Source: a virus (taxonomy: Duplodnaviria > Caudoviricetes). Taken from it: a DNA stretch of 64,000 bases. A program made the position numbers and the translations under genes. Positions 36,301 to 51,734 of this stretch are shown here, one piece after another. Under the pieces are notes generated by a model, which did no database searches, was not told the origin of the DNA, and saw only the letters and a program-made list of their open reading frames with translations. The stretch is from the IMG/VR virus record IMGVR_UViG_3300002092_001784, positions 64,001 through 128,000 of that record; one strand, written 5' to 3'. Every line of letters starts with the position of its first letter. Position 1 is the stretch's first letter.

Positions 36301-36357
36301 CATTAAAAATTTGGAAATACCAAATAAAAGTTGTATATTTGTAATGTAGTTCTTTGA
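36286..36357 (+). promoter_or_regulatory. Extended promoter plus boxA-like site heading the ncRNA region
   Basis: TTAACA repeat, TTTG-N20-TATATTTG, GTTCTTTGA at 36349. Confidence 0.8.
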
Positions 36358-36367
36358 GAAGATAATT

Positions 36368-36469
36368 GGTCGGGTGGCGAAATTGGTAGACGAATAATCT
36401 CTTACATATAGAGATAAGAATAAGGCTGCAAGGCAGTACTTCATGCAGGTTCGAGTCCTGCCCTGATCA
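36368..36469 (+). ncRNA. tRNA-Leu-like RNA with non-canonical anticodon region (copy 1)
   Basis: GGTCGGG/CCTGATC-A, D arm TGGCGAAATTGGTAGACG, T arm GCAGG-TTCGAGT-CCTGC. Confidence 0.7.
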
Positions 36470-36475
36470 CAAAAT

Positions 36476-36865
36476 AAATTCGTAACCGATAGCAGGTGGG
36501 CAGTAGGGCTATCCGAATTAAAACAAATGGTATAACGATGAAATGATCAACTCGAGATAAGATCAGAGTAGTATGAAAGTAAACGAAGCCCGTGGTATCA
36601 ATCAAACACCTCTACGTGGTGATGCTAGAAATCCAGAAATGGAGCTAAGTTTGAACAGTTCAGTTAAAAAAAGTAAGATGGTTAAAGTTAGTCCAAGCTT
36701 TAACATTAGTGTTCAATGGATTAGAAAGGGAAATCTGTAATCAGTCGTAATGGGCTATGAGCTTACGTCTAATCGCTAATATTTAATCATCGTGACCCTA
36801 ATCTTATTATTCCTATAATTTAATTGATGGAGTATGAACGTTAGTTCAGTAATAAGAAAGGGTTC
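36476..36865 (+). ncRNA. Unassigned structured RNA A
   Basis: No long ORF; helices GATAGC/GCTATC, ACGATGA/TCATCGT and ACCCT..CTTATTA/TAATAAG..AGGGT. Confidence 0.55.
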
Positions 36866-36872
36866 TAATATT

Positions 36873-36996
36873 GATCAGGTGGCGGAATTGGTAGACGCTT
36901 ACAATATGATAAGGTGAACGAGAGGAGAACCGATAAGAATCAACCGCTTTTATATTATTCAGCTTCACTTAGCAGGTTCGAATCCTGCCCTGATCA
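36873..36996 (+). ncRNA. tRNA-Leu-like RNA with a 73-nt insert replacing the anticodon and variable arms (copy 2)
   Basis: GATCAGG/CCTGATC-A, D arm TGGCGGAATTGGTAGACGC, T arm GCAGG-TTCGAAT-CCTGC. Confidence 0.7.
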
Positions 36997-37001
36997 CATA
37001 A

Positions 37002-37065
37002 TCGACCATAAGAGGATTGGTAATGAGGAACACATTACAAGTGGTTGACAGCTCGGAAAGACGGC
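37002..37065 (+). ncRNA. Small two-hairpin motif with GACAG..GGAAAGAC (possibly Flavo-1-like)
   Basis: TCGACCAT/GTGGTTGA followed by CAGCTCGGAAAGACGGC; second copy at 40353. Confidence 0.4.
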
Positions 37066-37085
37066 ATTTGTTCTTTGAAAAAATA

Positions 37086-37660
37086 AACTCTTCTGCTTGA
37101 AGCAAAGCAATCTTAAAGACATCCATAACCACCATAAGAACGTTTGTTGGGTTAATAAGATAGATCATAGCAGTGATCGTTGTTTTGTGGAGAGATGATA
37201 TAACGTTTTATCAATTCCAATCTGCAATTGGACAGAAGAGTTTTTAAAATAGAAAGAGGAGACTGGGTTATATTTGATAATGGAGGCAATTCCTGGATAT
37301 ATCACACTCCTCTAAATAAACAGGCTAAACATTGAATCCTGATGTGAATTACTGCCCGTAGGGTTAATTTATAGGTACTGATATTGTGCCCTTAATTCAC
37401 ATAAAGATGTACACAGTAATGTGTAACGTGTTGTTCCCTTGAGAAAGGAATAGTTTATGTTCAGAGACAGAGGGTGTACCTTGAGTACCGACTCTCACCA
37501 ACACGAATGAGTTCTCAGCAAAAATGATTAATAAGGAACGAAGCAATCCCTTAATATACATAGTGAGGTATAGTTAATCATTGTGACCCTACTCTTATCA
37601 GTAGTTTAAGAAACTATCGCTCTGTTTTTTACAGGATGGAAAGGATTGATAGACAAGAGG
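37086..37660 (+). ncRNA. Unassigned multi-domain structured RNA B (about 570 nt)
   Basis: Follows a boxA-like site; helices AAACTCTTCTG/CAGAAGAGTTT, GAGGAG/CTCCTC, ATGTGAATTA/TAATTCACAT, CGTGTTG/CAACACG, AATGATTAA/TTAATCATT. Confidence 0.6.
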
Positions 37661-37696
37661 GTGCTAATAAATAAATTGAAAAAAGTACAAAATTAA

Positions 37697-37728
37697 TTTG
37701 GAAATGTGAAAAATTATTCGTATCTTTG
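37697..37728 (+). promoter_or_regulatory. Bacteroidota promoter upstream of tRNA-fMet
   Basis: TTTG-N20-TATCTTTG. Confidence 0.75.
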
Positions 37729-37772
37729 TATAAATTAAAAAACTATATACTTATATATATATTAAAACATAC

Positions 37773-37850
37773 AGCAGGATGGACTGGAGATGGTCCCAGC
37801 TCGGTCTCATAAGCCGAATCACACGAGTTCGAATCTCGTTCCTGCAACCA
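37773..37850 (+). tRNA. tRNA-Met(CAT), probably initiator
   Basis: TCGGT-CTCATAA-GCCGA; 1:72 mismatch; CCA encoded. Confidence 0.85.
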
Positions 37851-37922
37851 TTAAAAAATTGATTGAAGCCAGCACCTAATAAAACCGAGTGCGTGAATAA
37901 ATAAAAAGCCGGACATCAATTT

Positions 37923-37994
37923 TTAACATTTTTTAACTAAAAAAGATTTGGAAATTAAAAATATTTTTCGTATCTTTGTAGTATAGTTCTTTGA
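37923..37994 (+). promoter_or_regulatory. Promoter plus boxA-like site
   Basis: Partial TTAAC repeat, TTTG-N20-TATCTTTG, GTTCTTTGA at 37986. Confidence 0.75.
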
Positions 37995-38001
37995 GATGAT
38001 T

Positions 38002-38153
38002 ATTGAAACAAGCTGGAGCTTGTAATGTGAAAATTGAATTAATTTAGGGGTTCATAACTCCTTCATCCAGCGGTGCAATACCGTAGTAACATTCAATGTA
38101 ATGTGGTTAATATTCAGAATAAGCAGATGATGGTTCAATTCCATCTTTCAATA
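38002..38153 (+). ncRNA. tRNA-like-capped RNA (152 nt)
   Basis: ATTGAAA/TTTCAAT-A acceptor-like stem; GATGG-TTCAATT-CCATC T arm; inner GCTGGA/TCCAGC helix. Confidence 0.6.
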
Positions 38154-38180
38154 ATTATTTTTAATAAAATTACAAAAAGA

Positions 38181-38242
38181 TTTGGAAATGTGAAAAATTT
38201 TTCGTATCTTTGTAAAACAAAATTAAAACATACGTTCTTTAA
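38181..38242 (+). promoter_or_regulatory. Promoter plus boxA-like site upstream of the GOLLD-like RNA
   Basis: TTTG-N20-TATCTTTG; GTTCTTTAA at 38234. Confidence 0.75.
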
Positions 38243-38259
38243 TAGTATTTAAGATTTAA

Positions 38260-39135
38260 GAACTGAACAAAGCTTCGGCAGAGTGAAAGTTCAAGACGGC
38301 CGCCTATGGTCGTTAAATAAACTACGAAAGTAGGATAAAGTGAACCGGTGTGGTTTATACGGTTTGCGGTTTGATAATCGAAAGGTTGTTGAGCTCGAGT
38401 AGGCAATGGAAATATCATCGCTCCTTTAGTATTGAGGGTAACACTGTAAAGATGGTGGAGAGATGACTGGGCTAAGTAGATAGTCCGGTTGAGTTCGGAA
38501 GAACAATAAGAATAATTTCAAGGATTTATGCAAGAAATGGGAACTTAATCCCTTCTCACTATTGCGTGATTCAATATGAGAGTTGACTTAAAACCGAAAG
38601 GTAATGTAAGTATGGTGAATTGCCAGAATGTACAGGTGGTGCTGTTATTCCTTTCACTACAAAGTTTTACCAAAAGCTTTGAATACTTCAGTCCACTTAA
38701 AATGTGGTGTTAGGGATAACACATTGGGTAGTTTAGTATTCCGTTGTTCAAAAGGTAACGGAGCTGGTTGGCGAACCACTACCCGAATCCATCTACAAAC
38801 CAAAACTATTTGAAATATGGTTCAAAACTAAAAATCAAAAAGCAAAAGTGTTCGTCAGTTGCAAGCGAAAGGTGCGTACTTAGTAATGGGTTGTCCATTG
38901 CCATATGTAATAGCCAAAATCATATGATTCTAAGGAAAGACTTCTAACACCGCAAGTGCTAATCAGTTCGGCAGAATTGATGAGGTGTAATAGTTGGAGA
39001 GTAGTTTGTAACTCAAAGAGTGGTTCACTTAAATAACCCGCATTGAATCAATACCAGCCAAAAGCAGGTGGATAATAAGGGAAACAATAATCCTTATAAA
39101 GATGGTTCACATAAGCAAGTAATCTCATTGCAAAT
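38260..39135 (+). ncRNA. GOLLD-like giant ornate RNA (boundaries approximate)
   Basis: About 870 nt with no credible ORF; many GNRA and UUCG-type hairpins; 3' blocks GTTCAAAAGGTAACG, AAAGCAAAAGT..GCAAGCGAAAG, GAGTAGTTTG..GAGTGGTT and GGTGGATAA resemble GOLLD as I recall it; next to tRNAs. Confidence 0.75.
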
Positions 39136-39143
39136 AACAAAAC

Positions 39144-39212
39144 GCGGAAATCGTATAATGTAGTATCACAGGCCTCCAGCCTGTTGGTTGTGGACGATTC
39201 CACATTTCCGCT
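39144..39212 (+). tRNA. Atypical tRNA-Gly(TCC)
   Basis: GCGGAAA/TTTCCGC-T; loop CCTCCAG (C33); 6-nt T loop ACGATT. Confidence 0.6.
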
Positions 39213-39251
39213 CACTTAGTTATGGTTCTATTAATTAAAAACCAAAAATTT

Positions 39252-39319
39252 GCGGTTTAAGTGTTACGGTAGCACAGGAACATTCCAGTTTCAAGATGGG
39301 TTCGACTCCCAAAACCGCT
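39252..39319 (+). tRNA. Atypical tRNA-Gly(TCC)
   Basis: GCGGTTT/AAACCGC-T; GGAAC-ATTCCA-GTTTC with a 6-nt loop. Confidence 0.55.
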
Positions 39320-39355
39320 CTAAGATAAATTCAGTTCAGTAATGAACTAAAAATC

Positions 39356-39458
39356 TACGGTAGAAGTGGGTGATTGGGCGGGATACCTTAAATAAGATTC
39401 GCAACTTTCAAGTCCATTCGCTTTCACAATAGTAAATGTGAATATTGTGACTACCGTA
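39356..39458 (+). ncRNA. Unassigned three-way-junction RNA
   Basis: TACGGTAG/CTACCGTA closing stem; TCACAATA/TATTGTGA hairpin. Confidence 0.5.
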
Positions 39459-39496
39459 AAAATATTAAAAAAATAAAAACATAATACTTATATACA

Positions 39497-39622
39497 ATGA
39501 AAACCTTAGCATTACATACAAATTTGTTTAATTTACCACTCTATAAAAGCTGGTCGAATATTTGTGTGTTTAATTCAAGCATTCGCAAGAGTTCAGTTGA
39601 GGGAAGTAATTTATTTACGTGA
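39497..39622 (+). CDS. Leader peptide 1 (41 aa), candidate attenuator of the downstream tRNA array
   Basis: MKTLALHTNLFNLPLYKSWSNICVFNSSIRKSSVEGSNLFT; 39593-39603 is complementary to the terminator 5' arm. Confidence 0.7.
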   Translation: MKTLALHTNLFNLPLYKSWSNICVFNSSIRKSSVEGSNLFT

Positions 39623-39660
39623 CGTATTAGAAGATAAAAGAATACAAACTAACTAAATAG

Positions 39661-39694
39661 ACCCTCTACTGATAAACAAAGTAGGGGGTTTTTT
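39661..39694 (+). terminator. Attenuator terminator 1
   Basis: ACCCTCTACT/AGTAGGGGGT 10-bp stem followed by a T run. Confidence 0.85.
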
Positions 39695-39709
39695 CGTTTG
39701 TAACAATTT

Positions 39710-39780
39710 GTTTCTATGGTGAAATGGTATCACGACGGACTGTTAATCCGTGATTTATGGTTCGAGTCCATATGGGAACG
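39710..39780 (+). tRNA. tRNA-Asn(GTT)
   Basis: ACGGA-CTGTTAA-TCCGT; full cloverleaf. Confidence 0.92.
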
Positions 39781-39819
39781 CTAGAACAAAAGGTTCATTG
39801 AAATATTTGAGTTTGATTT

Positions 39820-39894
39820 GGGCATGTAGTTTAGCTGGTTGAAAATGTCTGGTTTACACCCAGAAGACCGTAGGTTCAAATCCTACCTTGCCTA
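39820..39894 (+). tRNA. tRNA-Val(TAC)
   Basis: TCTGG-TTTACAC-CCAGA. Confidence 0.9.
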
Positions 39895-39904
39895 CATATA
39901 ATAT

Positions 39905-39971
39905 GCCGACGAACAGGAATAAGCCGGGTCTGTAAAACCCTAGCTCGAGGTTTCGATCACCTCCGGCGGCA
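39905..39971 (+). tRNA. Truncated tRNA-Tyr(GTA) without a clear D stem or long variable arm
   Basis: GGGT-CTGTAAA-ACCC; T arm GAGGT-TTCGATC-ACCTC; 67 nt. Confidence 0.65.
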
Positions 39972-39976
39972 CAATT

Positions 39977-40049
39977 GGAGAAGAAGCTAACTTGGTAGAA
40001 GCACTGGTCTGAAAAATCAGAGGAATTGGATCGAAACCAATCTTTTCCA
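39977..40049 (+). tRNA. tRNA-Phe(GAA)
   Basis: CTGGT-CTGAAAA-ATCAG. Confidence 0.9.
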
Positions 40050-40076
40050 CAATCCAAAAAGGATTATATTAAAAAT

Positions 40077-40150
40077 GACTTCGTGGCCAAACTGGATAAG
40101 GCTTCTCACTTTTAATGAGAAAATTGTGAGTTCAAATCTCACCGGAGTCA
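40077..40150 (+). tRNA. tRNA-Lys(TTT)
   Basis: TCTCA-CTTTTAA-TGAGA. Confidence 0.92.
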
Positions 40151-40249
40151 CTAGGGAACGTGGGTGGTAATCTGACCGGATATAGGATTGGATGGGAAAC
40201 AGACAGGGAGCCTGCTGAAATTCTGTAAAGGGTTGGGAATTTATGTTAT

Positions 40250-40322
40250 GGTTCGGTAGACCAACGGTAGAGTCAGTAGTTTCAAAAGCTATAAAGTGTG
40301 GGTTCGAATCCCACTCGGACTA
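40250..40322 (+). tRNA. tRNA-Leu(CAA) with short variable loop
   Basis: GTAGT-TTCAAAA-GCTAT; A73. Confidence 0.82.
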
Positions 40323-40352
40323 CATTGGAATACATATTCGAACGAAGTGTAT

Positions 40353-40405
40353 TAGCAAAGACGAGAAGTCAATCATTCGTTTGTGACAGGTGTGGAAAGA
40401 CATAC
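40353..40405 (+). ncRNA. Second GACAG..GGAAAGAC motif
   Basis: Helix ending in TGA, then CAGGTGTGGAAAGACATAC. Confidence 0.4.
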
Positions 40406-40410
40406 GATAT

Positions 40411-40485
40411 GGTCCGGTAGCCCAATTTGGTAGAGGCAGCAGACTTAAACCCTGCATAGTGAGAGTTCAAATCTCTTTCGGACTA
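40411..40485 (+). tRNA. tRNA-Leu(TAA) with short variable loop
   Basis: GCAGA-CTTAAAC-CCTGC; A73. Confidence 0.82.
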
Positions 40486-40495
40486 CAATTATTAA

Positions 40496-40569
40496 CGGCG
40501 AATCGTCTAATTTGGTTAGGACGCAAATCTGATAAGTTTGTAATCCCAGTTCGAAGCTGGGCTCGCCGA
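40496..40569 (+). tRNA. tRNA-Ile(GAT)
   Basis: CAAAT-CTGATAA-GTTTG. Confidence 0.88.
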
Positions 40570-40586
40570 CAAACAATAAAAAAAAT

Positions 40587-40678
40587 GGAAGTATAAATCC
40601 CAGATGGACTAAGGGAGCCGGTCTTGAAAACCGTAGGTCGCTAAACACGGCGTGTAAGTTCGAGTCTTACTACTTCCG
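40587..40678 (+). tRNA. tRNA-Ser(TGA)
   Basis: CCGGT-CTTGAAA-ACCGT; long variable arm; G73. Confidence 0.9.
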
Positions 40679-40781
40679 CAGCATGTGTGATATATCACTC
40701 ATTAATGATTAATTTGATTAAAATAAACAACATTATGAAAAAACTATTTGACAAGTATTAGGTTAATTAAAACCTAGTATT

Positions 40782-41003
40782 ATGAAACCGTACAAAAAAT
40801 CAATGATTGCTAAAACTACAACTTGTAGAAAAGAATACAAAGTAGTTACTAACCGTTTTTATAAAGACCCGTATTGGGATGAAGGGCTATACTTTTATCC
40901 AACAATACGAAAGGGTTATAAAAACCCTAACAGACAGATTATGAGTTATCAGATTAGAATGTATCGAACTTGGAAACATAATCGGAAAACTCAATGGAAA
41001 TAA
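40782..41003 (+). CDS. Hypothetical basic protein
   Basis: 73 aa, ends YRTWKHNRKTQWK. Confidence 0.6.
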   Translation: MKPYKKSMIAKTTTCRKEYKVVTNRFYKDPYWDEGLYFYPTIRKGYKNPNRQIMSYQIRMYRTWKHNRKTQWK

Positions 41004-41010
41004 ACAATAC

Positions 41011-41092
41011 ACATTCGCTCATTGGCGTGACCAGCCGGCTCCAACCCGGTAATGCGTAAGCGTGGTTGAGGGTTCGAATCCCTACGAATGTG
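41011..41092 (+). tRNA. Atypical tRNA-Trp(CCA) with long variable arm
   Basis: ACATTCG/CGAATGT-G; GCCGG-CTCCAAC-CCGGT; extra arm ATGCG-TAAG-CGTG. Confidence 0.65.
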
Positions 41093-41098
41093 CACTAT

Positions 41099-41171
41099 AC
41101 GTAAGTAGCTCAATTGGTAGAGTAGTGGTCTCCAAAACCACCGGTTGGGAGTTCGAGTCTCTCCTTACGTG
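41099..41171 (+). tRNA. tRNA-Trp(CCA)
   Basis: GTGGT-CTCCAAA-ACCAC. Confidence 0.92.
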
Positions 41172-41174
41172 CAT

Positions 41175-41251
41175 GGCCTTATGGTGTAATTGAATAACAC
41201 GCTTCGCTACGGACGAAGAGAGTGAGGGTTTGAATCCTTCTAGGGTCACCA
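41175..41251 (+). tRNA. tRNA-Arg(ACG)
   Basis: CTTCG-CTACGGA-CGAAG; CCA encoded. Confidence 0.9.
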
Positions 41252-41253
41252 AT

Positions 41254-41327
41254 TTAACAATTTCTTAACATTAAAAATTTGGAAATACTGAATAAATGTA
41301 GTATATTTGATTATAAAATTAAGAGAT
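41254..41327 (+). promoter_or_regulatory. Extended promoter
   Basis: TTAACA-N5-TTAACA, TTTG-N20-TATATTTG. Confidence 0.78.
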
Positions 41328-41468
41328 ATGACAAAAGTATGGATAGCCGATGTAAACCGAAAAGATGGTAGGAAGCTAGTTTCATTTTGGAACAGTACTT
41401 TGACCGGAACATATTTTATTGAAAAGAATCGTTTTGGTAAACTTTATTCAGTAATCAAACAGTTTTAA
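41328..41468 (+). CDS. Small protein (46 aa), not in ORF track
   Basis: MTKVWIADVNRKDGRKLVSFW..., directly after the promoter. Confidence 0.55.
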   Translation: MTKVWIADVNRKDGRKLVSFWNSTLTGTYFIEKNRFGKLYSVIKQF

Positions 41469-41471
41469 GTT

Positions 41472-42194
41472 ATGAAACAGTTAATCGGATTTACCATTAA
41501 GTATTATACATTGTGGAATTATTCAGAAGAGCCGCAATACGTTACGGATGCATATGGTAATCATCATCAAAGTGGTATCAAACAGCATTATGAATACATT
41601 AAGAATGTAAGTTTTGATATTGAAAAGGTGAAGAAACTACACCCCGAACTTTCAATCGATGAAGGGCTTAGGGGTAAGACCAGTAGTTGGTATGATTACA
41701 AAAAGATTGATTTACCTAACAACATTTTTTGGGGTGGTAAATATACCGGTCTATTGATTGATGAAATTCTGGTTAGAGATTTTAAGTATTGCCGATGGGC
41801 TGCATCGAATTACAGTCAGGTGGAAGAATATCTTTCAACCTGTCCGTTTTATTTGGAGCAGATGGGTCAACAACAAAAACGGTTGGATGAACAACTAAAA
41901 TCAGCAGGATTGTTAACCGAAGGTCAGATTGCTACTATTCATTTTACATCAAATGGATATAACGCCAATGATGAATTTACAGAGTGTTGGGCAACTGGTA
42001 TTTATGATTCTATTGGGGTTAAGGTGATGTTTAACGGTGTTAAACGGGTTGGTGGTATGTATCCTTATCTAATGCCATTGGTTAACGGAAAGTGTCAAAA
42101 AACGAAAGGAAAGGCATTTCAAATTGAAGTGGCTGAAGTATTCAATACGAATGTTTACAAAGATACAATTACTCAACAGATACGAATTAAATAA
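41472..42194 (+). CDS. Hypothetical protein
   Basis: 240 aa ORF. Confidence 0.65.
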   Translation: MKQLIGFTIKYYTLWNYSEEPQYVTDAYGNHHQSGIKQHYEYIKNVSFDIEKVKKLHPELSIDEGLRGKTSSWYDYKKIDLPNNIFWGGKYTGLLIDEILVRDFKYCRWAASNYSQVEEYLSTCPFYLEQMGQQQKRLDEQLKSAGLLTEGQIATIHFTSNGYNANDEFTECWATGIYDSIGVKVMFNGVKRVGGMYPYLMPLVNGKCQKTKGKAFQIEVAEVFNTNVYKDTITQQIRIK

Positions 42195-42198
42195 AGTT

Positions 42199-42582
42199 AT
42201 GACAAAAGAAGAAATTGAATTAGTTAATAGTAAGTGTCCTTATGAGCAGGGTATATTTGTTGAACCATGGGCGATTCCAATCCATATCAAAGAACCTGTA
42301 ATTTATTGTAGATATGAAACTGGTGGGTATCGTGGTGGCGGTTATTGGAATGATGGTGAACCTACATATTATGAAGAAGATGCACCTGATGACAAGTTCA
42401 AAGTATTGGATTTGGTATTGGAAATTCTGAAACCAAATATATCATATTTACAGTATAAAAAAATAGAAAATATGATACACGACAATTACGAAACCGAATA
42501 TGAATATTACGGTAATTCTACAAATTGGAAAGTTGAATACATTATTTTATCTGAATTGGAGAAATTCTTAGAAAATTGTTAA
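42199..42582 (+). CDS. Hypothetical protein
   Basis: Start moved to AAGTT-ATG at 42199. Confidence 0.6.
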   Translation: MTKEEIELVNSKCPYEQGIFVEPWAIPIHIKEPVIYCRYETGGYRGGGYWNDGEPTYYEEDAPDDKFKVLDLVLEILKPNISYLQYKKIENMIHDNYETEYEYYGNSTNWKVEYIILSELEKFLENC

Positions 42583-42586
42583 CAAT

Positions 42587-42892
42587 ATGAACATAGACGA
42601 ATACAAAGAACTTGAAGATGAATTGTTGTCAAAACATCGGTTTGAATTACATAAGTTGCGTTCGGATTATGTTGCCAATAATAAAAAATACAGTATTGGC
42701 GACTTTGTTTATAATGTAACTGGAATTATTCGGGTCGATAGTGTAGGTTATAGGTTGTTCTTGGGTGGTATTGAGATTGTTTATACCGGATACCGATATA
42801 AGAAACAAAATGGACAAATCAGTAGAACAAAGGATAAGCTAATGGCAACTTTATGGGAAAGTCATAAACTTAAATTGTTAACAATTTCTTAA
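42587..42892 (+). CDS. Hypothetical protein
   Basis: 101 aa ORF. Confidence 0.6.
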   Translation: MNIDEYKELEDELLSKHRFELHKLRSDYVANNKKYSIGDFVYNVTGIIRVDSVGYRLFLGGIEIVYTGYRYKKQNGQISRTKDKLMATLWESHKLKLLTIS

Positions 42893-42950
42893 CATCAAAA
42901 GTTTGGAAATCCAAAATAAATGTAGTATATTTGAATATAATCATTAAGAG
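42878..42950 (+). promoter_or_regulatory. Extended promoter
   Basis: TTAACA-N5-TTAACA, TTTG-N20-TATATTTG. Confidence 0.78.
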
Positions 42951-42959
42951 ATATACATT

Positions 42960-43556
42960 ATGAAACCTTCGAAAATTACAGTTCAGATTAACGGTGTTAA
43001 ACTTCAACTTCCAGAAACGGCTATTAAAAAAACGAATTGGAAGGGTGAACCGATTACTCCTTATATTGAGATTGGACAAGTAGAAACCGCTTCCCTTTCT
43101 AAACAGTATGTTAAACTAAAATATCCGAACGTATCCGTTTCAGCAAGTTCAGATTCATATTCCGGTGGGTGTAGTTGTAATGTGTATCTTTCCGATGAAT
43201 ATGGGTTTCCGGTATCGAAAACGATTCTTAACGATGTTCAGAAGTTTGCATATCAGTTTCAATCGGGTCACTTCGATGGTATGACCGATAGTTACAATTA
43301 CAATGAAGTTGACCCTACTTCGGATAACGGAACTCGTCTTTCAACTGGATGTAGTTATGTGTTTGTTAACAACCGACCAAAGTTTGGTTCGGGTCCTGAT
43401 ATTATCCGTTCCATTAGAGAACATATGGAAGGTAAGTATAACTGTGGTGTTACCACATTTGAAGTGGCTAAAACACAAACCGCTAGGTATCACAAACCGG
43501 CCGCTATTGAAAGGGCTTTGAAAGGTGTTGATTTGAAAAAGGCATTGAAATTTTAA
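42960..43556 (+). CDS. Hypothetical protein (LPD29-like motif)
   Basis: FSVR-like VSASSDSYSGG and G.FDGMTDSY pattern. Confidence 0.55.
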   Translation: MKPSKITVQINGVKLQLPETAIKKTNWKGEPITPYIEIGQVETASLSKQYVKLKYPNVSVSASSDSYSGGCSCNVYLSDEYGFPVSKTILNDVQKFAYQFQSGHFDGMTDSYNYNEVDPTSDNGTRLSTGCSYVFVNNRPKFGSGPDIIRSIREHMEGKYNCGVTTFEVAKTQTARYHKPAAIERALKGVDLKKALKF

Positions 43557-43571
43557 TATATAAACAAAGTT

Positions 43572-43829
43572 ATGAAAAAATTGTATGAACCAAAAATTGG
43601 TAGTATTGTCAGACATACTGGATTTCAACAAAATCCAAAAGAATACCCTTGTGATGTGTATATTGTTAGTGGGCAGTTTTTCTCGAATGGTAGATTATCT
43701 AATTTCTGGGAGTGGCGTAGGGTTTTAGATGGTAACCAGCTGGGTGATATTGAAAAGGGGTATGGCGATTTTGAGGAAACTGAAAATAAATATGAAATTA
43801 ATCATACAGTTAGTATAGTTAAAACATAA
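43572..43829 (+). CDS. Hypothetical protein
   Basis: 85 aa ORF. Confidence 0.6.
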   Translation: MKKLYEPKIGSIVRHTGFQQNPKEYPCDVYIVSGQFFSNGRLSNFWEWRRVLDGNQLGDIEKGYGDFEETENKYEINHTVSIVKT

Positions 43830-43838
43830 ATAATAATT

Positions 43839-43909
43839 GTCACACAAATCAAATGGATTGGTGCTTGTCTGCAAAATAAGATTAGTGAGTTCGATTCTCA
43901 CGTGTGACT
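43839..43909 (+). tRNA. tRNA-Cys(GCA)
   Basis: CTTGT-CTGCAAA-ATAAG; U73. Confidence 0.88.
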
Positions 43910-43914
43910 CATAT

Positions 43915-43988
43915 GGTGTCTATGGTGTTAATGGTAGCATGACAGATTGTGGTTCTGTGGGTGAGAGGTTCGAATCCTCCTAGACACA
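43915..43988 (+). tRNA. tRNA-His(GTG)
   Basis: ACAGA-TTGTGGT-TCTGT; encoded G-1. Confidence 0.88.
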
Positions 43989-43997
43989 CTTAAAAAA

Positions 43998-44048
43998 ATT
44001 ATAAGGCTAGAACCTTATAATCGCATATTATAAGGCTAGAACCTTATA
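43998..44048 (+). repeat. Twin 22-nt direct repeat, each copy a hairpin
   Basis: ATTATAAGGCTAGAACCTTATA at 43998 and 44027. Confidence 0.9.
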
Positions 44049-44055
44049 TTTTTAT

Positions 44056-44141
44056 GGAGAGTGAAGTAGCAAGGTCTGTTACCACCGCCTGCTAAGCGGA
44101 TGGCTCTGAAAATGGGTACGTTTCGAATACGTCGTTCTCCG
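44056..44141 (+). tRNA. tRNA-Ser(GCT)
   Basis: CCGC-CTGCTAA-GCGG; long variable arm; G73. Confidence 0.88.
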
Positions 44142-44154
44142 CATTTATTAACTC

Positions 44155-44228
44155 GGTTCGGTAGACCAATTGGTAGAGTCAACGGCTTTAGACACCGTCC
44201 AGTGTGGGTTCGAATCCCACTCGAACTA
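44155..44228 (+). tRNA. tRNA-Leu(TAG) with short variable loop
   Basis: ACGGC-TTTAGAC-ACCGT; paralog of the tRNA at 40250. Confidence 0.82.
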
Positions 44229-44241
44229 CAAAAAGATATTT

Positions 44242-44895
44242 ATGAAATTAGTTTTAGAAAAAGGACAAAGGTTATACTTCACCTCGGATTCACACTACGG
44301 TCATCACAACATCTGTTCTGCAACTACAAAATGGGTAGATGCAGAAGATATGACTCGGGATTTCGAATCGTTGGACAGTATGAATGATATGTTGGTAGAC
44401 AATATCAATAAGTTGGTTGGTGAAAATGATATTCTATTTCATTTAGGTGACTGGTCTTTTGGTGGATTTGATAACATCAGAAAATTCAGAGAGAGGATTG
44501 CTTGTAAGAACATTCATTTGGTACTTGGTAACCATGACCACCATATCGCTAATAACAAAGATGGTGTTCAATCTCTTTTCAGTTCGGTAAACAATTATGT
44601 GTTTCTGGATGTGAGAGTACCGATTAACAAAAACCATAATGACAGACACGCATTTGTATTGTGTCACTTTCCGATTGCAAGTTGGGATAGTATGAACACA
44701 GGAGTACTGCATTTGCATGGACACACTCACCTACCTCCGCATTTAAGAATTGCCGCAGGTAGGGCAATGGACATTGGTATGGATGGGAACGGATTAGAAC
44801 CGATTGAATACACAGAGGTTGTAAACCTATTGAAAGATAGACCAATCCGAAAGTTGAGTTTACCGACGGACCACCATGAAAAAAGATTGATTTAA
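44242..44895 (+). CDS. Calcineurin-like metallophosphoesterase
   Basis: SDSHYGH, LGD, GNHD and HGHTH motifs; start moved out of the tRNA to ATG 44242. Confidence 0.9.
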   Translation: MKLVLEKGQRLYFTSDSHYGHHNICSATTKWVDAEDMTRDFESLDSMNDMLVDNINKLVGENDILFHLGDWSFGGFDNIRKFRERIACKNIHLVLGNHDHHIANNKDGVQSLFSSVNNYVFLDVRVPINKNHNDRHAFVLCHFPIASWDSMNTGVLHLHGHTHLPPHLRIAAGRAMDIGMDGNGLEPIEYTEVVNLLKDRPIRKLSLPTDHHEKRLI

Positions 44896-44927
44896 TTTGG
44901 TAATATGAAATATTTTTTGTATATTTG
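44896..44927 (+). promoter_or_regulatory. Bacteroidota promoter
   Basis: TTTG-N20-TATATTTG. Confidence 0.7.
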
Positions 44928-44944
44928 TAAAAAATAAATAAGTT

Positions 44945-45124
44945 ATGAAAGAATTAAGGATTTATGAATTTCAAGCAAAGCAAATCGAGGATACATTTCG
45001 TTTGATTGCCCGATTATTAAAATCGCAAGATAAATTAACATCTCTTGATAGAGATGTGATGCAGAGTTGGGGAATGATTGAAAATGTATTGAATGGCAAT
45101 ATCAATGAACAGGTAAAACGATAA
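44945..45124 (+). CDS. Small protein (59 aa), not in ORF track
   Basis: MKELRIYEFQAKQIEDTFRL..., AAGTT-ATG start. Confidence 0.6.
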   Translation: MKELRIYEFQAKQIEDTFRLIARLLKSQDKLTSLDRDVMQSWGMIENVLNGNINEQVKR

Positions 45125-45127
45125 GTT

Positions 45128-45568
45128 ATGACAGGTAAAGAATTGGGAGCATTACTATTTGGTATTCATCATCACGACGAACGAAGTGAAAAGATAATCT
45201 ACTTTGAAGAAGATTTATTACCAATACTTCTTGCCGCAGGATTGCCCCAACCGGAGTGGGGTGGCAGTATGGATTTGGATCAATATAGTGAATTGGAATC
45301 GGAACGATGGTTACGAGAAGCTGAACAACGAAAAGAAGAAAGAGAACGATTGAATCTATTTGTTACAGGTGATAGAGTTGTGATTGATACTACTGATTTA
45401 CAATATTTTCCATGGAAATACGAAAAGTATATTGGTGTGGTTGGGGTGGTATATTCTACTGCAATGGGTGGTGAGCAAGGAATTGGTCCGTTTCAAGAGA
45501 TTAGAGTTGACTTTAACGGAACTATAACAGAATCATTACTAAGCATATATTTTAAGCATACAATCTAA
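45128..45568 (+). CDS. Hypothetical protein
   Basis: 146 aa ORF. Confidence 0.6.
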   Translation: MTGKELGALLFGIHHHDERSEKIIYFEEDLLPILLAAGLPQPEWGGSMDLDQYSELESERWLREAEQRKEERERLNLFVTGDRVVIDTTDLQYFPWKYEKYIGVVGVVYSTAMGGEQGIGPFQEIRVDFNGTITESLLSIYFKHTI

Positions 45569-45570
45569 AT

Positions 45571-46131
45571 ATGAAAATTTTATTCCTTGACCACGATGGA
45601 GTAATTTGTTTGTCCCCACAGTGGGGAGGTCGTTTCAAAAACAAAGAAGGACTTGATTTGATGTTTGACAGATTTGATGATAAAGCAGTAAAGGTACTGA
45701 ATAAAATCATTGAAGAAACCGATTGCGAAATTGTGGTATCATCCGATTGGAGATTGTTCGCTACATTAGAGCAAATGCAAGAATTGTATCTTATCCGTGG
45801 TATCTTAAAATCACCGATTGATTATACACCACTAACCGCAGATACTGATGTAATACCTGATGGGTTTACATTTGATAGGTGGGAATGGGAAGTACAGCAA
45901 AGTAGGTGTTTTGAGATTAAAACTTGGTTAAAACGCCATACTGAAATTACGAATTGGGTGGCAGTTGATGATATGAATATGAGTTCAGATTATAAGTTTG
46001 AATACGATTCACATAAGCAGTTGTGGGGGTTGGATAATTTTGTAAGGACACCGATTTCAAATCAAGGAATTAAACAAACCGGAATTAAGGATAAAATTGT
46101 TAAAATACTTAATCAAACTCAAAATATGTAA
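45571..46131 (+). CDS. HAD-family protein (HAD_SAK_2-like)
   Basis: ILFLDHDGVI, VVSSDWR, R..EI..WL and WVAVDD motifs. Confidence 0.82.
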   Translation: MKILFLDHDGVICLSPQWGGRFKNKEGLDLMFDRFDDKAVKVLNKIIEETDCEIVVSSDWRLFATLEQMQELYLIRGILKSPIDYTPLTADTDVIPDGFTFDRWEWEVQQSRCFEIKTWLKRHTEITNWVAVDDMNMSSDYKFEYDSHKQLWGLDNFVRTPISNQGIKQTGIKDKIVKILNQTQNM

Positions 46132-46193
46132 TAATTTAACGGAACTTTATTATTGGTTGGTATATTTATAGGTGTAATAAAATACCTATAAAG

Positions 46194-47276
46194 ATGAAAA
46201 AACCCAAAGTTCTGTTTATTCTTAAAAAAAGACAAGATTACGGTGAACCACACCCAGCGCATATTGGGTTGAGTACTGGTTTATATAATTCGGCAACATT
46301 TGTTAACGATATGCTAAATGATGCAGGAATCCATTCACATATTGAAGTGGTAGTTGACAATAATGATATAGATAGAGAAGTTACTAAACACAAACCAACT
46401 CATGTTATTATTGAGGCGTTGTGGGTAGTACCATCTAAATTTGATGTGTTGTGTAAATTACACCCAACTGTAAATTGGATTATAAGGCTTCATAGTGAAC
46501 TTCCATTTTTAGCAAATGAAGGAAACGCTATGGATTGGATTGGATGTTATATACAGCATAGAAACGTACATATTGCAGTAAATGCCCCACGTACTATGAA
46601 TGATATTAAACATTATCTTCGTATCAAGATGGGCTGGTTAAATAATATGGTGAATAAGAAAGTAATTTATTTACCAAATTTTTATCCTCAGAAGTACAAA
46701 GTAAAGAAATTCAATGTGAATGATGATACTATTGATATTTCTTGTTTTGGGGCAGTTAGACCGTTTAAGAATCATCTTAATCAGGCTATGGCAGCAATTA
46801 AGTTTGCTGACAAGATTGGTAAGAAGTTGAGATTTCATATCAATACCGGTCGTTTTGAAATGAAAGGTGTATCAGTCTATACTAATTTGGTTGGATTGTT
46901 TGATCACCTATCAGATAGAGGACATAAGTTAATTAACCATGAGTGGACACACCATGATGAATTTTTGAAAATCTGTTCTCAAATGGATATTGCAATGCAA
47001 TGTTCATTTTCTGAAACTTTTAATATAGTTGCCGCAGATGAGATTTCTCAGGGAGTACCATTGGTAGCATCTAAAGAGATAGTTTGGTCGAGTTCTTTGT
47101 TTAATGCAAATCCAACAGATACGAAGTCTATTACCAATGCATTGATGCTGACATATAAGATGCCGTGTTTGAATGTAAAATGGAATAAACTTGGTTTAAC
47201 AACTTATACAAATAAGACTCGGAAAATATGGGTTGATTATTTCAAAAAACAAAACCCATTCATTCTTAACAAATAA
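46194..47276 (+). CDS. GT-B glycosyltransferase-like protein
   Basis: FGAVRPFKN and SFSETFNIVAAD (E-x7-D) motifs. Confidence 0.7.
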   Translation: MKKPKVLFILKKRQDYGEPHPAHIGLSTGLYNSATFVNDMLNDAGIHSHIEVVVDNNDIDREVTKHKPTHVIIEALWVVPSKFDVLCKLHPTVNWIIRLHSELPFLANEGNAMDWIGCYIQHRNVHIAVNAPRTMNDIKHYLRIKMGWLNNMVNKKVIYLPNFYPQKYKVKKFNVNDDTIDISCFGAVRPFKNHLNQAMAAIKFADKIGKKLRFHINTGRFEMKGVSVYTNLVGLFDHLSDRGHKLINHEWTHHDEFLKICSQMDIAMQCSFSETFNIVAADEISQGVPLVASKEIVWSSSLFNANPTDTKSITNALMLTYKMPCLNVKWNKLGLTTYTNKTRKIWVDYFKKQNPFILNK

Positions 47277-47312
47277 AATAGTGATTTTTTAATTTTTGAA
47301 TACTTATATACG

Positions 47313-47417
47313 ATGAAGAACACAATAAACACATACCCGCAACCTAGTAGACCAACAACCGTTGGGACAGGAAGAGGTACGCAAAATTACATAGTTCGGA
47401 ATCGCAAATTAGATTAA
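47313..47417 (+). CDS. Leader peptide 2 (34 aa), candidate attenuator of the Arg/Pro/Thr/Gly/Gln tRNA array
   Basis: MKNTINTYPQPSRPTTVGTGRGTQNYIVRNRKLD; 47392-47400 is complementary to the terminator 5' arm. Confidence 0.75.
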   Translation: MKNTINTYPQPSRPTTVGTGRGTQNYIVRNRKLD

Positions 47418-47440
47418 ATAAAAAACATTCATATAATTTG

Positions 47441-47480
47441 AAAAATCCGAGCTAAACATAAAGAGTTCGGATTTTTTATT
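47441..47480 (+). terminator. Attenuator terminator 2
   Basis: AAAAATCCGAGCT / AGTTCGGATTTTT followed by a T-rich tail. Confidence 0.85.
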
Positions 47481-47580
47481 TTAAGATATTAACACCATCG
47501 TTCTTTGGCATAACGGAGAAAAATAATTATGGAACAAGGCATTATTATCGATATAGATATAATGGTGAATAGTGTTATAT

Positions 47581-47653
47581 GGCCCTATGATGTAATGGAT
47601 TAGCATCAGTCCCTTCTAAGGATTTCGTTAGCGTTCGAATCGCTATGGGGCTA
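47581..47653 (+). tRNA. tRNA-Arg(TCT)
   Basis: AGTCC-CTTCTAA-GGATT. Confidence 0.9.
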
Positions 47654-47688
47654 CTAAGTTATTAAGTGTAAACTAAAAAACAGAAATT

Positions 47689-48120
47689 ATGAAATTATTA
47701 AAAATAGTATTGATATGTATATTACTATCGCTAATACCTGTTCAGTTTAAGGCTGATATTGCAGATTTGGTTGTGTTTGAAAATATATTAAAGAAAGAAC
47801 AGAAACCTCGTATTGTAACAGTAACAACATATACTGTGAATCGTAAAAAGTATACCGCTAGTGGATTTGAGGTAACTCCGGATAATCCGGCAGCAGAACG
47901 AATTATCGCAATTAGTAGGGATTTGAAGAAACGATTTGAATATGGTGAGCGTGTACTGGTTACTGGTATTGGAGAATATAGTGGGGTTTATATTATAAGG
48001 GATTTGATGGGTAAAAAGTGGAAGAACCGAATAGATATTCTAATTGATCCGGAAGATGAACATACAAAATTGTTTAATGCAAGATTGTATCGAATGGATG
48101 CTGAAGATTCAGAAAAGTAA
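47689..48120 (+). CDS. 3D-domain (peptidoglycan hydrolase-like) secreted protein
   Basis: Signal peptide; T.Y...TASG...IAISRD...D......RIDIL. Confidence 0.75.
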   Translation: MKLLKIVLICILLSLIPVQFKADIADLVVFENILKKEQKPRIVTVTTYTVNRKKYTASGFEVTPDNPAAERIIAISRDLKKRFEYGERVLVTGIGEYSGVYIIRDLMGKKWKNRIDILIDPEDEHTKLFNARLYRMDAEDSEK

Positions 48121-48128
48121 AAGTATAT

Positions 48129-48201
48129 AGCGAGTGAGGTGTAATGATTTTGCATACCGCATTTGGGATGCGGGGGAGGAGTTTGATTCTCACACTTGCT
48201 A
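48129..48201 (+). tRNA. tRNA-Pro(TGG)
   Basis: CCGCA-TTTGGGA-TGCGG; weak T stem. Confidence 0.8.
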
Positions 48202-48229
48202 CAAAAAAATAAAAACGAAGTAGTTATAT

Positions 48230-48589
48230 ATGGAAAAACTAACATATAAAACCGATGGGGACATGAGTGAATACTTCGAAAGATTATCCGATATAATCAA
48301 AAAAGGGAAAACACAGGAAGAAGTGGTATCAATGATTCTTAATGTGGTAAACGCCAAGAAAAAGTTGGTGAAGTATAAAGGTGGCAAATGTGAATTATGC
48401 GGATACAATCGAAGTATAAATGCATTACATTTTCATACTCGTAACAAAGATGGTAAAGATTATATCATAAGTGGCAAAACTTTATCAATGGATACTCTTA
48501 AAAAGGATGTGGATAAATATGTATTGGTTTGTTCAAATTGCAGAGTAGAAATAAATGAAGGAATTGTTGATATTAGTTTGGAAAGTTGA
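48230..48589 (+). CDS. Degenerate HNH-like protein
   Basis: KGGKCELCGY...ALHFH...VCSNC. Confidence 0.65.
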   Translation: MEKLTYKTDGDMSEYFERLSDIIKKGKTQEEVVSMILNVVNAKKKLVKYKGGKCELCGYNRSINALHFHTRNKDGKDYIISGKTLSMDTLKKDVDKYVLVCSNCRVEINEGIVDISLES

Positions 48590-48608
48590 AATATTTTTCG
48601 TATCTTTG
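48577..48608 (+). promoter_or_regulatory. Bacteroidota promoter upstream of tRNA-Thr
   Basis: TTTG-N20-TATCTTTG. Confidence 0.75.
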
Positions 48609-48623
48609 TAAAATTAAATAAAC

Positions 48624-48708
48624 GCCTCTATCGTATAGTGGTCGATTACAGCTGATTTGTAATCAGCATTTCGAAAGAAACTCGTCGGTTCGAATCCGGC
48701 TAGGGGCT
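48624..48708 (+). tRNA. tRNA-Thr(TGT) with long variable arm
   Basis: GCTGA-TTTGTAA-TCAGC; extra arm TTTC-GAAA-GAAA. Confidence 0.85.
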
Positions 48709-48784
48709 CGGGGTAACTCATATTGAGAACCCGTTCCGATAACATACCCAGAGTGGTTACTTAAACGAAGTGTTATCAAATATT

Positions 48785-48860
48785 GCGAATGTAGCTCAAT
48801 TGGTAGAGTACGGCGTTGCCAACGCTGAGGTTGTGAGATCGTAGCTCATCATTCGCTCCA
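48785..48860 (+). tRNA. tRNA-Gly(GCC)
   Basis: CGGCG-TTGCCAA-CGCTG; CCA encoded. Confidence 0.92.
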
Positions 48861-48973
48861 TAAGGGTTTCCCGCTTTAAGGTGAAGGACACGCGGGCGGA
48901 GACGTTCAGAATTAGTCATTAAACAATTCAAAACCTTAAGTCTATGATGGGAGGGCCCTACCCATTAAATTTT

Positions 48974-49046
48974 GCGGAAGTAGCTCAATTGGTAGAGCGC
49001 CTGCCTTCCAAGCAGGGGGTTGAGGTATCGTACACCTTCTTCCGCT
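48974..49046 (+). tRNA. tRNA-Gly(TCC)
   Basis: CCTGC-CTTCCAA-GCAGG. Confidence 0.92.
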
Positions 49047-49102
49047 CCGGTCACTTTTTTGTAAGTTAGAGATGAAAGTTCGATTTTATTATATTTATAT
49101 GT

Positions 49103-49789
49103 ATGAAACGATGCAAAAAATGTAATATAGAATTTGAACCTCAACGAGGATTGTTGAATTATTGCTCATTAGCATGTAGGAACAGTAGAAATTGGACGGT
49201 TGCTGATAAATTAAAAAAATCAATTAGTGCTAAAAATAGTGCTAAAGTTATTGAATCAAACTCTAAATTATCTGATAAATTAAAAGAATATTGGTCGGAT
49301 GAAACTAAAAGATTGGCTCAATCATATCGTATAAAAAATATATGGACTGATGAAATGAGAAAAATTTATTCATCCAATCGAATGGGAGTTAAGCATTCAG
49401 CAGAAACAATAGAAAAAATAAGAACTATTCAAAAACAAAGATTAAAGGATAACCCAATGCTGCATCCTAATAGATTATGTGCTGGTATTAATGAAAGTTA
49501 TCCCGAAAGAATGATTAGGGAATATTTTGAAAATATTGGATATGTAAATGGTATTGATTTTATTCAGCAATTTGAATATAAAGGTTATTATGTAGATTTT
49601 TATATACCAAAAACTAATATTTGTATAGAAGTTGATGGTGAATATTGGCATGATAGTTCAAATCAAAAAGAAATTGATAGAGAAAATGAAATAAAGAAAA
49701 CATATAAATTATATAGATTATCCGCAAAACAAGTATTGAAAAAAGAATACGAAGATTTATTAAAAAATATATTTTCAGAATTGAATTAA
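49103..49789 (+). mobile_element. Free-standing homing-type endonuclease (Zn finger, NUMOD3-like, DUF559/Vsr-like)
   Basis: CKKC...CSLAC, KHSAETIEKI and YYVDFY...IEVDGEYWH; inserted between tRNA genes. Confidence 0.7.
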
Positions 49790-49886
49790 TATAAAAACTC
49801 AAGTACCCGTACAGCTAGAGTAGGGTTAAATTAGATACGATTTCTCAGTTTCAATAACACGCTGGAAGTAGAATGCTTGAGAATAT

Positions 49887-49957
49887 TGCCCGATGGTGTA
49901 ACGGTAGCACCCATCACTTTGACTGATGTAGTTTAGGTTCGAATCCTAATCGGGCGA
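49887..49957 (+). tRNA. tRNA-Gln(TTG)
   Basis: CATCA-CTTTGAC-TGATG. Confidence 0.92.
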
Positions 49958-49970
49958 CTAAAATAGTTTT

Positions 49971-50528
49971 ATGAAAAATTGGAAGAAAATATTAATAATC
50001 ATTGCGGCAATTGGATTAGCTGCATTTGTAATTTGGAAAATAGTAACATATACAGAACCGGAGTTTCACCCAGAGCCGTTTCCAATCAATAATACAGTTG
50101 CCAATCTAACAGGTGGTAAGACTTATTTGGATACAATAGTTCATCTGGCATTAAACGCATTGGATTTTAAGGGATTGGTTGTTGTTATTCAACCATTAAC
50201 ACCTGCAATGCAGTCCGCATTTTCTCAAACATTGGAACTTAAAGCTCAGATTAAACCGGATAGTGATAGTACACTGTTTCATTTGTATATTGGTGATTTA
50301 AGTAAATCGGAAGCAATTGGGGTAGTATCGCATGAAATGATACATTTGAAACAATATTATCTAAAGGAATTAGTAGTTAAAAACGATACTGCTTATTGGC
50401 AAGAATATCCAATACCTATTACATCTGTGGAATACGAAGCAAGGCCGTGGGAAACTCAAGCTTTTAATTTGAGTAAAGATTTAGAATGGATATTAAAACA
50501 TAAACTGTATAATTTATACACAAAATAA
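49971..50528 (+). CDS. Membrane-anchored HExxH metallopeptidase-like protein
   Basis: N-terminal TM helix; SHEMIHL..Q and PWETQA motifs. Confidence 0.7.
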   Translation: MKNWKKILIIIAAIGLAAFVIWKIVTYTEPEFHPEPFPINNTVANLTGGKTYLDTIVHLALNALDFKGLVVVIQPLTPAMQSAFSQTLELKAQIKPDSDSTLFHLYIGDLSKSEAIGVVSHEMIHLKQYYLKELVVKNDTAYWQEYPIPITSVEYEARPWETQAFNLSKDLEWILKHKLYNLYTK

Positions 50529-50533
50529 CCGAT

Positions 50534-50989
50534 ATGAAATTTAGAAAAATGTTTCAATCTACCGAATTTGAAGTAGTTGATTATGTGAAGGAATATTTGG
50601 ACGAACATGAAGATATTGAAATTCTAATCGGTTGTGATTCACAAAATCGTTCATCCGAAACCGTATATGCAGTTGTAGTTGCAATGTACAGACCTGGGAA
50701 GGGAGCACATATAATTTTCCGCAAATGGAAAACACCAAAGGAATTTAACAGACCAACTCGGTTATTAAATGAGGTATGGTTTTCAGTTGAAGTTGCGGAA
50801 TTATTAAAAAATGCAGGTGTTAAGAAGCCGAAATGGATAGATATAGATATTAACCCGGACCCTCGTTATAAATCAAATGAAGTATTTCGTCAGGCTGTTG
50901 GGCTGGTGGAAGGAATGGGTTATAGCTGCAGATTCAAATCATTAGGCCCAATTACAACGTATACCGCAGATTCATTAGTAAAATCTTAA
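50534..50989 (+). CDS. RNase H-like YkuK (DUF458) protein
   Basis: IGCDSQ, RLLNEV and IDIDIN motifs. Confidence 0.8.
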   Translation: MKFRKMFQSTEFEVVDYVKEYLDEHEDIEILIGCDSQNRSSETVYAVVVAMYRPGKGAHIIFRKWKTPKEFNRPTRLLNEVWFSVEVAELLKNAGVKKPKWIDIDINPDPRYKSNEVFRQAVGLVEGMGYSCRFKSLGPITTYTADSLVKS

Positions 50990-51001
50990 AAAAACAATTA
51001 T

Positions 51002-51634: not shown

Positions 51635-51637
51635 CAT

Positions 51638-51711: not shown

Positions 51712-51734
51712 TGTTTAATTAAAAAAAATACATT

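Follow-up and report, generated by a model that had tools for sequence, protein, structure and literature searches.

In the window of 64,000 nucleotides (nt) analyzed here, bases 64001–128000 of the 266,153-bp virus record IMGVR_UViG_3300002092_001784, two short leader open reading frames (ORFs) are each followed by an intrinsic terminator and an array of tRNA genes, and both elements are probably ribosome-mediated (leader-peptide) transcription attenuators of the trp type that gate the phage tRNA arrays. The original prediction described attenuators whose leader codons mirror the array and which supply tRNAs on demand, and our results make this the likely explanation. In related phages, homologous leaders stand before tRNA arrays and keep open frames, the antiterminator pairing is conserved, hairpin P1 in leader 2 covaries, and leader codons track the division of tRNAs in each genome, rearrangements included. 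The anatomy of the elements, its conservation, the alternative pairing, and the co-variation between codons and anticodons are direct observations.

Leader ORFs, alternative pairing and relatives

Leader ORF 1 (39497–39622, +) has 41 codons, and leader ORF 2 (47313–47417, +) has 34; as the original prediction stated, both begin 1 nt after the same 12-mer, ATACTTATATAC, which occurs exactly twice in the window (39484–39495 and 47300–47311, both + and exact matches). Their translations (41 and 34 amino acids, respectively) bear out the claimed gaps in amino acid content: leader 1 contains neither Gln nor the AGA codon, and its sole Gly (GGA) lies inside the antiterminator segment, while leader 2 lacks Phe, Trp, Cys, and His and has its sole Leu at the penultimate codon. 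Array 1 behind leader 1 (39710–44229, +) comprises tRNAs Asn, Val, Tyr, Phe, Lys, Leu(CAA), Leu(UAA), Ile, and Ser(UGA), then a class II tRNA with the CCA anticodon, Trp, Arg(ACG), Cys, His, Ser(GCU), and Leu(UAG), with protein genes interspersed; array 2 behind leader 2 (47581–49958, +) consists of Arg(UCU), Pro(UGG), Thr(UGU), Gly(GCC), Gly(UCC), and Gln(UUG), with small protein genes interspersed. The tRNA genes were called by ARAGORN, at standard and relaxed thresholds, and by Rfam.

The terminators lie 26–38 nt 3' of the leader stop codons. Terminator 1 with its T-run occupies positions 39660–39696 (+; hairpin 39660–39690, −16.0 kcal/mol), and terminator 2, likewise with its T-run, positions 47443–47480 (+; hairpin 47443–47474, −12.1 kcal/mol). 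Within each ORF, a segment can pair with the 5' arm of the terminator, and its pairing was compared with that of dinucleotide shuffles. In leader 1 this antiterminator strand is AGTTGAGGG (39595–39603, +), which ends 16 nt before the stop codon and pairs with the terminator arm CCCTCTACT (duplex −11.0 kcal/mol, P 0.029); in leader 2 it is AGTTCGGA (47393–47401, +; duplex −11.6 kcal/mol, P 0.006), identical to the core of the 3' arm of terminator 2. Among 16 leaders with differing terminator sequences, the pairing beats the shuffles (P<0.05) in 11, and the 3' end of the segment lies 11–20 nt before the stop codon in most leaders. The motif GTTCGG matches the 3' arm of the terminator and hence can pair with the 5' arm. 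The frame in which it is translated differs among members (GTT-CGG or xGT-TCG-G), and its retention despite two reading frames marks it as an RNA-level element, although the frame itself is open in all members. Hairpin P1 of leader 2 (CCAAC-AACC-GTTGG; 47352–47365, +) shows covariation in family A, with compensatory changes in three of the five pairs among five members and 100% of cells paired.

The relatives were collected by homology and by an anatomy scan for a short ORF, then a terminator, and a tRNA gene shortly after the latter. The 360-amino-acid protein encoded upstream of leader 2, used as a query, retrieved a complete 310-kb phage (hereafter G1, locus L001) and 80 lake-metagenome loci. 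Two conserved leader families emerged: family A, which includes leader 2 and has homologues in L001, L012, L025, L094, L096, and about 35 IMG/VR loci, and family B, which includes leader 1, starts with MKxxxxH, and has homologues in L001, L025, L094, L096, L099, L104, L105, L130, L134, L090, L097, L031, L064, and L091. A protein search of G1 with leader 1 gave no match, and family B surfaced only via the anatomy scan. A peptide-profile search added 25 further protein clusters with their genomic contexts, and two DNA-pattern scans of IMG/VR, about 40 more loci; the IMG/VR pattern GAAGAGGT...ACATA.GTTCGG found G1 and three chance matches in unrelated coding genes (L008–L010), which were rejected. 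Leaders of families A and B head tRNA arrays in G1, L011–L097, and about 40 related freshwater IMG/VR loci; the element heads a tRNA array in every locus with sufficient flanking sequence, and the leader ORFs are open, at 24–50 codons, in all relatives.

Correspondence between leader codons and tRNA arrays

With codons assigned to tRNAs by standard wobble rules, 33 of the 40 codons of leader 1 are read by array 1; among the genes of this genome, 0.06% of 40-codon windows do as well. Leader 2 has 16 of 33 codons read by its own six-tRNA array; for its residues 9–24 the match rises to 14 of 16 codons, which was reached in none of 65,504 windows of the genome's genes. In a partition test, which compared "own minus cross" matches with at least 100,000 random re-partitions of the tRNA species of each genome, the window yielded P = 5e-5, and the related genomes, P about 2e-6 (G1), 1.5e-4 (L025), and 3e-5 (L094). 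Because the relaxed calls of Tyr (39902), Ser (44056), and Pro (48129) tRNAs have no Rfam support at E≤1, the window test was repeated without them, using standard ARAGORN calls only (P = 1.6e-4). The leader codons correspond to the regulated tRNAs (P from 5e-5 to 2e-6 in the partition tests of the window and G1).

In G1, the tRNAs of its own array read each of the 25 codons of leader B through the end of the antiterminator, and 24 of the 27 codons of leader A are likewise read by the array of that leader. Mismatches are concentrated at codon 2 and from the antiterminator onward, in the latter case at positions where a stall could no longer free the antiterminator. The correspondence is specific to the genome: the window leaders score 31 on the window partition and 12 on that of G1, and the G1 leaders score 46 on the G1 partition and 7 on that of the window.

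Leaders also follow rearrangements of the arrays. For example, in L134 the family A array holds Glu and Asp tRNAs, leader A has acquired E and D, and leader B has WASQR in place of the WADER of its relatives; in L142 and L174, Asp tRNA is present in the array and D in the leader. For the L172 array (Ser, Gln, Pro, Phe, Asn, Val, Ile, His, Met), 30 of 38 leader codons are matched. Permutation of arrays among leaders within a family lowered the number of matched codons to a mean of 283 in family A and 348 in family B, compared with 357 and 421, respectively, for the real combinations (P≤2e-5 in both cases, values that are inflated because leaders and arrays share ancestry).

In genomes with a single leader ahead of the entire tRNA region, the full set of 20 amino acids is present in 18 of the 20 distinct leaders, which are 41–49 residues long; Cys alone is absent from the remaining two. 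The random expectation of the full set is 0.008–0.02. Cys and His are kept in these single-leader genomes, at positions that vary among members. In L064, all 48 leader codons are read by the 26 downstream tRNAs.

It had further been claimed that a codon for the first tRNA of the array precedes the antiterminator by about 20 nt. This is true of the window, where AAT (39572) and AGA (47373) lie, respectively, 23 and 20 nt 5' of the segment, and fails as a general rule, as such a codon is found 16–26 nt before the antiterminator in six of the 12 leaders of relatives.

Proposed mechanism and alternative explanations

Translation of the leader, stalling of the ribosome, and regulated read-through, which we infer from the sequences, would work together as follows. 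The promoter would give rise to a transcript starting with the leader ORF of 34–41 codons, near whose 3' end a segment of 8–9 nt would be able to pair with the terminator 5' arm 40–60 nt downstream. A fast leading ribosome would be on this segment or at the stop codon, 11–20 nt beyond it, at the moment the RNA polymerase transcribes the terminator; with the segment covered, the terminator hairpin would form and the tRNA genes would be off. Were the tRNAs for leader codons scarce or uncharged, the ribosome would lag and leave the segment free to pair with the terminator 5' arm, and the polymerase would enter the array, a boxA-like site possibly adding processivity. Since the leader is written almost only in codons of its own array, the array would respond to a shortage of its own tRNAs, the outcome being a negative-feedback, demand-driven tRNA supply. 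No clear 1:2 anti-antiterminator and no conserved partner for the antiterminator strand were found in the leaders, so that the untranslated default would be read-through.

The lack of a clear anti-antiterminator departs from the classical design and is one of several observations that weigh against such an attenuator. In L012, G1, and probably L025, a canonical TTTG-N19-TAnnTTTG promoter with a boxA-like site separates the first tRNA from the terminator; transcription of these family A arrays could be independent of the leader, with read-through merely adding to constitutive output. In the window, the leader ATG stands only 1 nt after the promoter-like 12-mer, so that translation would require a leaderless mRNA or one with a very short leader, unless transcription starts upstream; the translation start of the window leaders is uncertain. 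The match between leader and array is poor in the family B leaders of L025 (13 of 31 codons) and L096 (16 of 32), and the shared ancestry noted above inflates the permutation P values. The third tRNA cluster of the genome (Glu, Glu, Asp, Ala; genome positions 147882–149353, beyond the window) has no leader and no terminator; the third leader predicted ahead of it is absent, and in its place an E-rich ORF of 87 amino acids (15% Glu) ends 11 nt before tRNA-Glu without a terminator. Finally, the peptide core of the L031-type leaders is invariant also at the nucleotide level (L031 vs. L064), and it could serve another purpose.

The best-surviving alternative, in our opinion an unlikely one, is that the leaders are ordinary small protein genes with their own promoters and terminators, the arrays are transcribed from other promoters, and the codon match is incidental or reflects local codon adaptation. 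This agrees with the conservation of peptide cores (e.g., MSYWSAIETLGNDR, in about 20 clusters), with the promoters that follow the terminator in L012 and G1, and with the fact that a terminator followed by a promoter is a standard module of this genome. It leaves unexplained that the amino acid content of leaders tracks their own tRNA partition, that single leaders tend to hold all 20 amino acids, that an antiterminator lies within the ORF, and how tRNAs located 10 nt after the terminator are expressed. Indeed, the first tRNA begins 10–11 nt after the terminator for leader 1 of the window, whose tRNA-Asn starts at 39710, and for the family B leaders of G1 and L090; this gap is too short for a promoter. 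For leader 2 of the window and the family B leader of L096, the boxA-like sequence GTTCTTTG(A/G) directly follows the terminator, again with no space for a promoter, and the tRNAs behind all these leaders would be transcribed only by read-through.

The conservation of P1, GTTCGG, and the terminator whatever the reading frame, together with the nucleotide-level conservation of the L031-type core, could also be expected of an RNA switch or small RNA independent of translation, in which a bound factor (a protein, uncharged tRNA as in T-boxes, or a metabolite) decides and the ORF is a by-product. We consider this quite improbable, as the frames stay open across divergent members and codon identity, beyond the nucleotide sequence, tracks the tRNA sets. 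Moreover, the leaders are about 170 nt long without the T-box architecture, and a cmscan search of 36000–52000 at E≤1 yielded no T-box (RF00230), no amino-acid leader family of Rfam (Trp, His, Leu, Thr), and no other cis-regulatory match.

A model without sensing, in which constitutive partial terminators or insulators set the dose of the arrays, is very unlikely. The abundance of intrinsic terminators in this genome (68 on the + strand) fits such a role, and yet the antiterminator complementarity beats shuffles and has a fixed place relative to the stop codon, and the codon match would have no role. The last alternative, that at least the L031-type leaders are TnaC-like arrest peptides sensing a small molecule in the ribosome tunnel, is the most doubtful of all, since the conserved W-x11-P with an acidic residue at W+4 (YWSAIETLGNDRTP), which recalls W12, D16, and P24 of TnaC, is missing from the window leaders and other family B members, and since the same peptides hold all 20 amino acids, in keeping with codon sensing. 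The likeness was set aside as probably coincidental, being confined to one subfamily (L031, L064, L091, L093, and proteins P0003–P0022), in which the core YWSAIETLGNDR(T/A)P is invariant.

The presence of tRNA genes in phages, and their use, are commonly explained by codon compensation, host shut-off, or escape from anticodon nucleases. If attenuation of the tRNA arrays by their leaders is true, phages regulate tRNA supply by demand, sensing the decoding speed of the codons served by the downstream tRNAs; classical attenuation would then extend from amino-acid genes to tRNA genes, and leaders would provide a sequence-readable predictor of the tRNAs that a phage treats as limiting. Small and modular, the elements could be used as codon-specific reporters of translation speed. 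We tentatively suggest that many large phages may gate their arrays by such "test translation" of the arrays' own codons, as a closed-loop feedback that would be ON when the host tRNA pool fails (due to codon-usage mismatch, host shut-off, or anticodon nucleases) and, by default, ON at translation collapse, a built-in counter to tRNA-targeting defences; the leader sequence would then predict the co-evolving array. For the phage studied here, a role against such defences is speculation, plausible in the context of a protein encoded inside the tRNA region (45571–46131, +), which contains the HAD domain of "Swiss Army Knife" RNA-repair proteins (PF18143, E 6e-23).

Promoter-like motifs, stable-RNA region and known systems

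The idea that the 12-mer is a special signal shared by the leaders did not hold up. A copy with one mismatch (37747–37758, +) lies 14 nt before tRNA-Met, with a canonical TATCTTTG box 17 nt upstream and with neither a leader ORF nor a terminator. At no more than one mismatch, the 12-mer has three matches versus 1.09 expected, and at least three were seen in 10 of 100 shuffles, so that the count alone is unremarkable. The sequence ATACTTATATAC is a variant of ATATTTATATA, which has 18 copies on the + strand of the genome, 13 of them 12–38 nt ahead of an ORF start, and two on the − strand; at genome position 30635, the same motif followed by aATGAAAAC runs into a stop codon after three codons. 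The copy ahead of leader 2 aligns to the 5' untranslated region (UTR) of family A relatives, 3' of their Bacteroidota-type TATATTTG box, in place of which the window has TAATTTTTG. Ahead of leader 1, the −7 box of relatives is degenerate just upstream (TACC-G, where G1 has TACCTTTG), and relatives contain nothing that corresponds to the 12-mer. Due to the abundance of the motif and its alignment with relatives, the 12-mer is probably either a −7/−10-like promoter element, in which case the mRNAs would be nearly leaderless, or a shared short UTR.

The site GTTCTTTGG (47500–47508, +), 20 nt after terminator 2, resembles the boxA of rrn operons, with a consensus such as GYTCTTTAA or TGTTCTTTGA; the label rests on this resemblance. 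The motif GTTCTTT(G/A)(A/G) is also found at 36349, 37070, 37986, and 38234 (+), directly 3' of TAnnTTTG boxes ahead of stable-RNA genes; of its 13 sites in the genome, five fall, on the + strand, within 14.5 kb of the tRNA region, and in relatives, it adjoins terminators or tRNA-Leu. This suggests antitermination of the rrn type acting on the stable-RNA transcripts of the phage. Elsewhere in the genome, near-identical terminator cassettes, AAAGCTTGGTTATTCCAAGCTTT followed by TTTTGTAT, recur at genome positions 115658, 122158, 163183, and 182822 (also 119318 and 150620; window positions 51658, 55318, and 58158), and the terminator's T-run plus G also supplies the −33 TTTG for the promoter that follows.

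The G+C content of the record is 34%, its long ORFs all lie on the + strand, and it has been seen only in freshwater metagenomes. No close relative was found among deposited phages, and megablast and blastn searches of both leader regions against the phage collection gave similarity at the tRNA level only. The stable-RNA region spans 36–50 kb of the window and contains about 27 tRNA genes in blocks. The window also encodes the transfer-messenger RNA (tmRNA; 31624–32003) and, just 5' of leader 1, a full-length GOLLD RNA (38724–39131, +; Rfam RF02032, 275 bits, E 5e-78) preceded by a TATCTTTG promoter-like box and the boxA-like site at 38234; in G1, GOLLD RNA is followed by tmRNA (L006), with no leader after it. 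Between GOLLD RNA and leader 1 lies a tRNA-like element with an abnormal anticodon loop (39251–39320, +; "???" in ARAGORN), the 3' end of which weakly matches the end of the tmRNA model. The tRNA-like gene of class II (long variable arm) with the CCA anticodon (41011–41093, +) adjoins a normal tRNA-Trp. Two Rfam tRNA matches, at 36368–36470 and 36873–36997 (+), are read by ARAGORN only as intron-containing Lys tRNAs and may be interrupted or degenerate genes. A metallophosphoesterase-like ORF is located at 44290–44895. In the locus L003 (7333–8155), a partial copy of tRNA-Glu, an inserted ORF of about 730 nt, and a full tRNA-Glu follow one another, an arrangement suggestive of a homing endonuclease inserted at a tRNA gene; L004 (4191–4265) has no insert.

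In full-text literature searches, we found no account of tRNA genes controlled by leader-peptide attenuation. Phage T5 resembles the window in that a promoter and a short ORF precede tRNA genes in its tRNA region (according to the record annotation); unlike in the window, no terminator separates the ORF from the tRNA, T5.070 ending 5 nt before tRNA-Cys, and T5, with small ORFs among its tRNAs but no terminators, was rejected as a precedent. The GTTCTTTGA-like motif just 3' of stable-RNA promoters and of terminator 2 recalls boxA/Nus antitermination of the rrn type; boxA of rrn provides processive antitermination rather than sensing, and in the phage it would act after the decision of the attenuator. 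T-box riboswitches likewise sense tRNA status and switch between terminator and antiterminator upstream of translation-related genes; unlike the much shorter phage leaders, they bind uncharged tRNA directly, need no ORF, and control synthetase and amino-acid genes.

The closest parallels are the attenuators of amino-acid operons (trpL, hisL, leuL, thrL, pheL), in particular the multivalent ones of ilvGMEDA (Ile/Val/Leu) and thr (Thr/Ile). The phage elements differ from these in that tRNA genes are regulated rather than enzymes, the leaders sample from five to 20 amino acids instead of containing runs of one, the antiterminator strand is situated inside the ORF, 11–20 nt before the stop codon, and not after it, and a clear anti-antiterminator is missing. 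Common to both are a short leader ORF, which in the amino-acid operons is translated, an intrinsic terminator that competes with an antiterminator, and regulatory codons suited to gauging the availability of those charged tRNAs that relate to the product under control.

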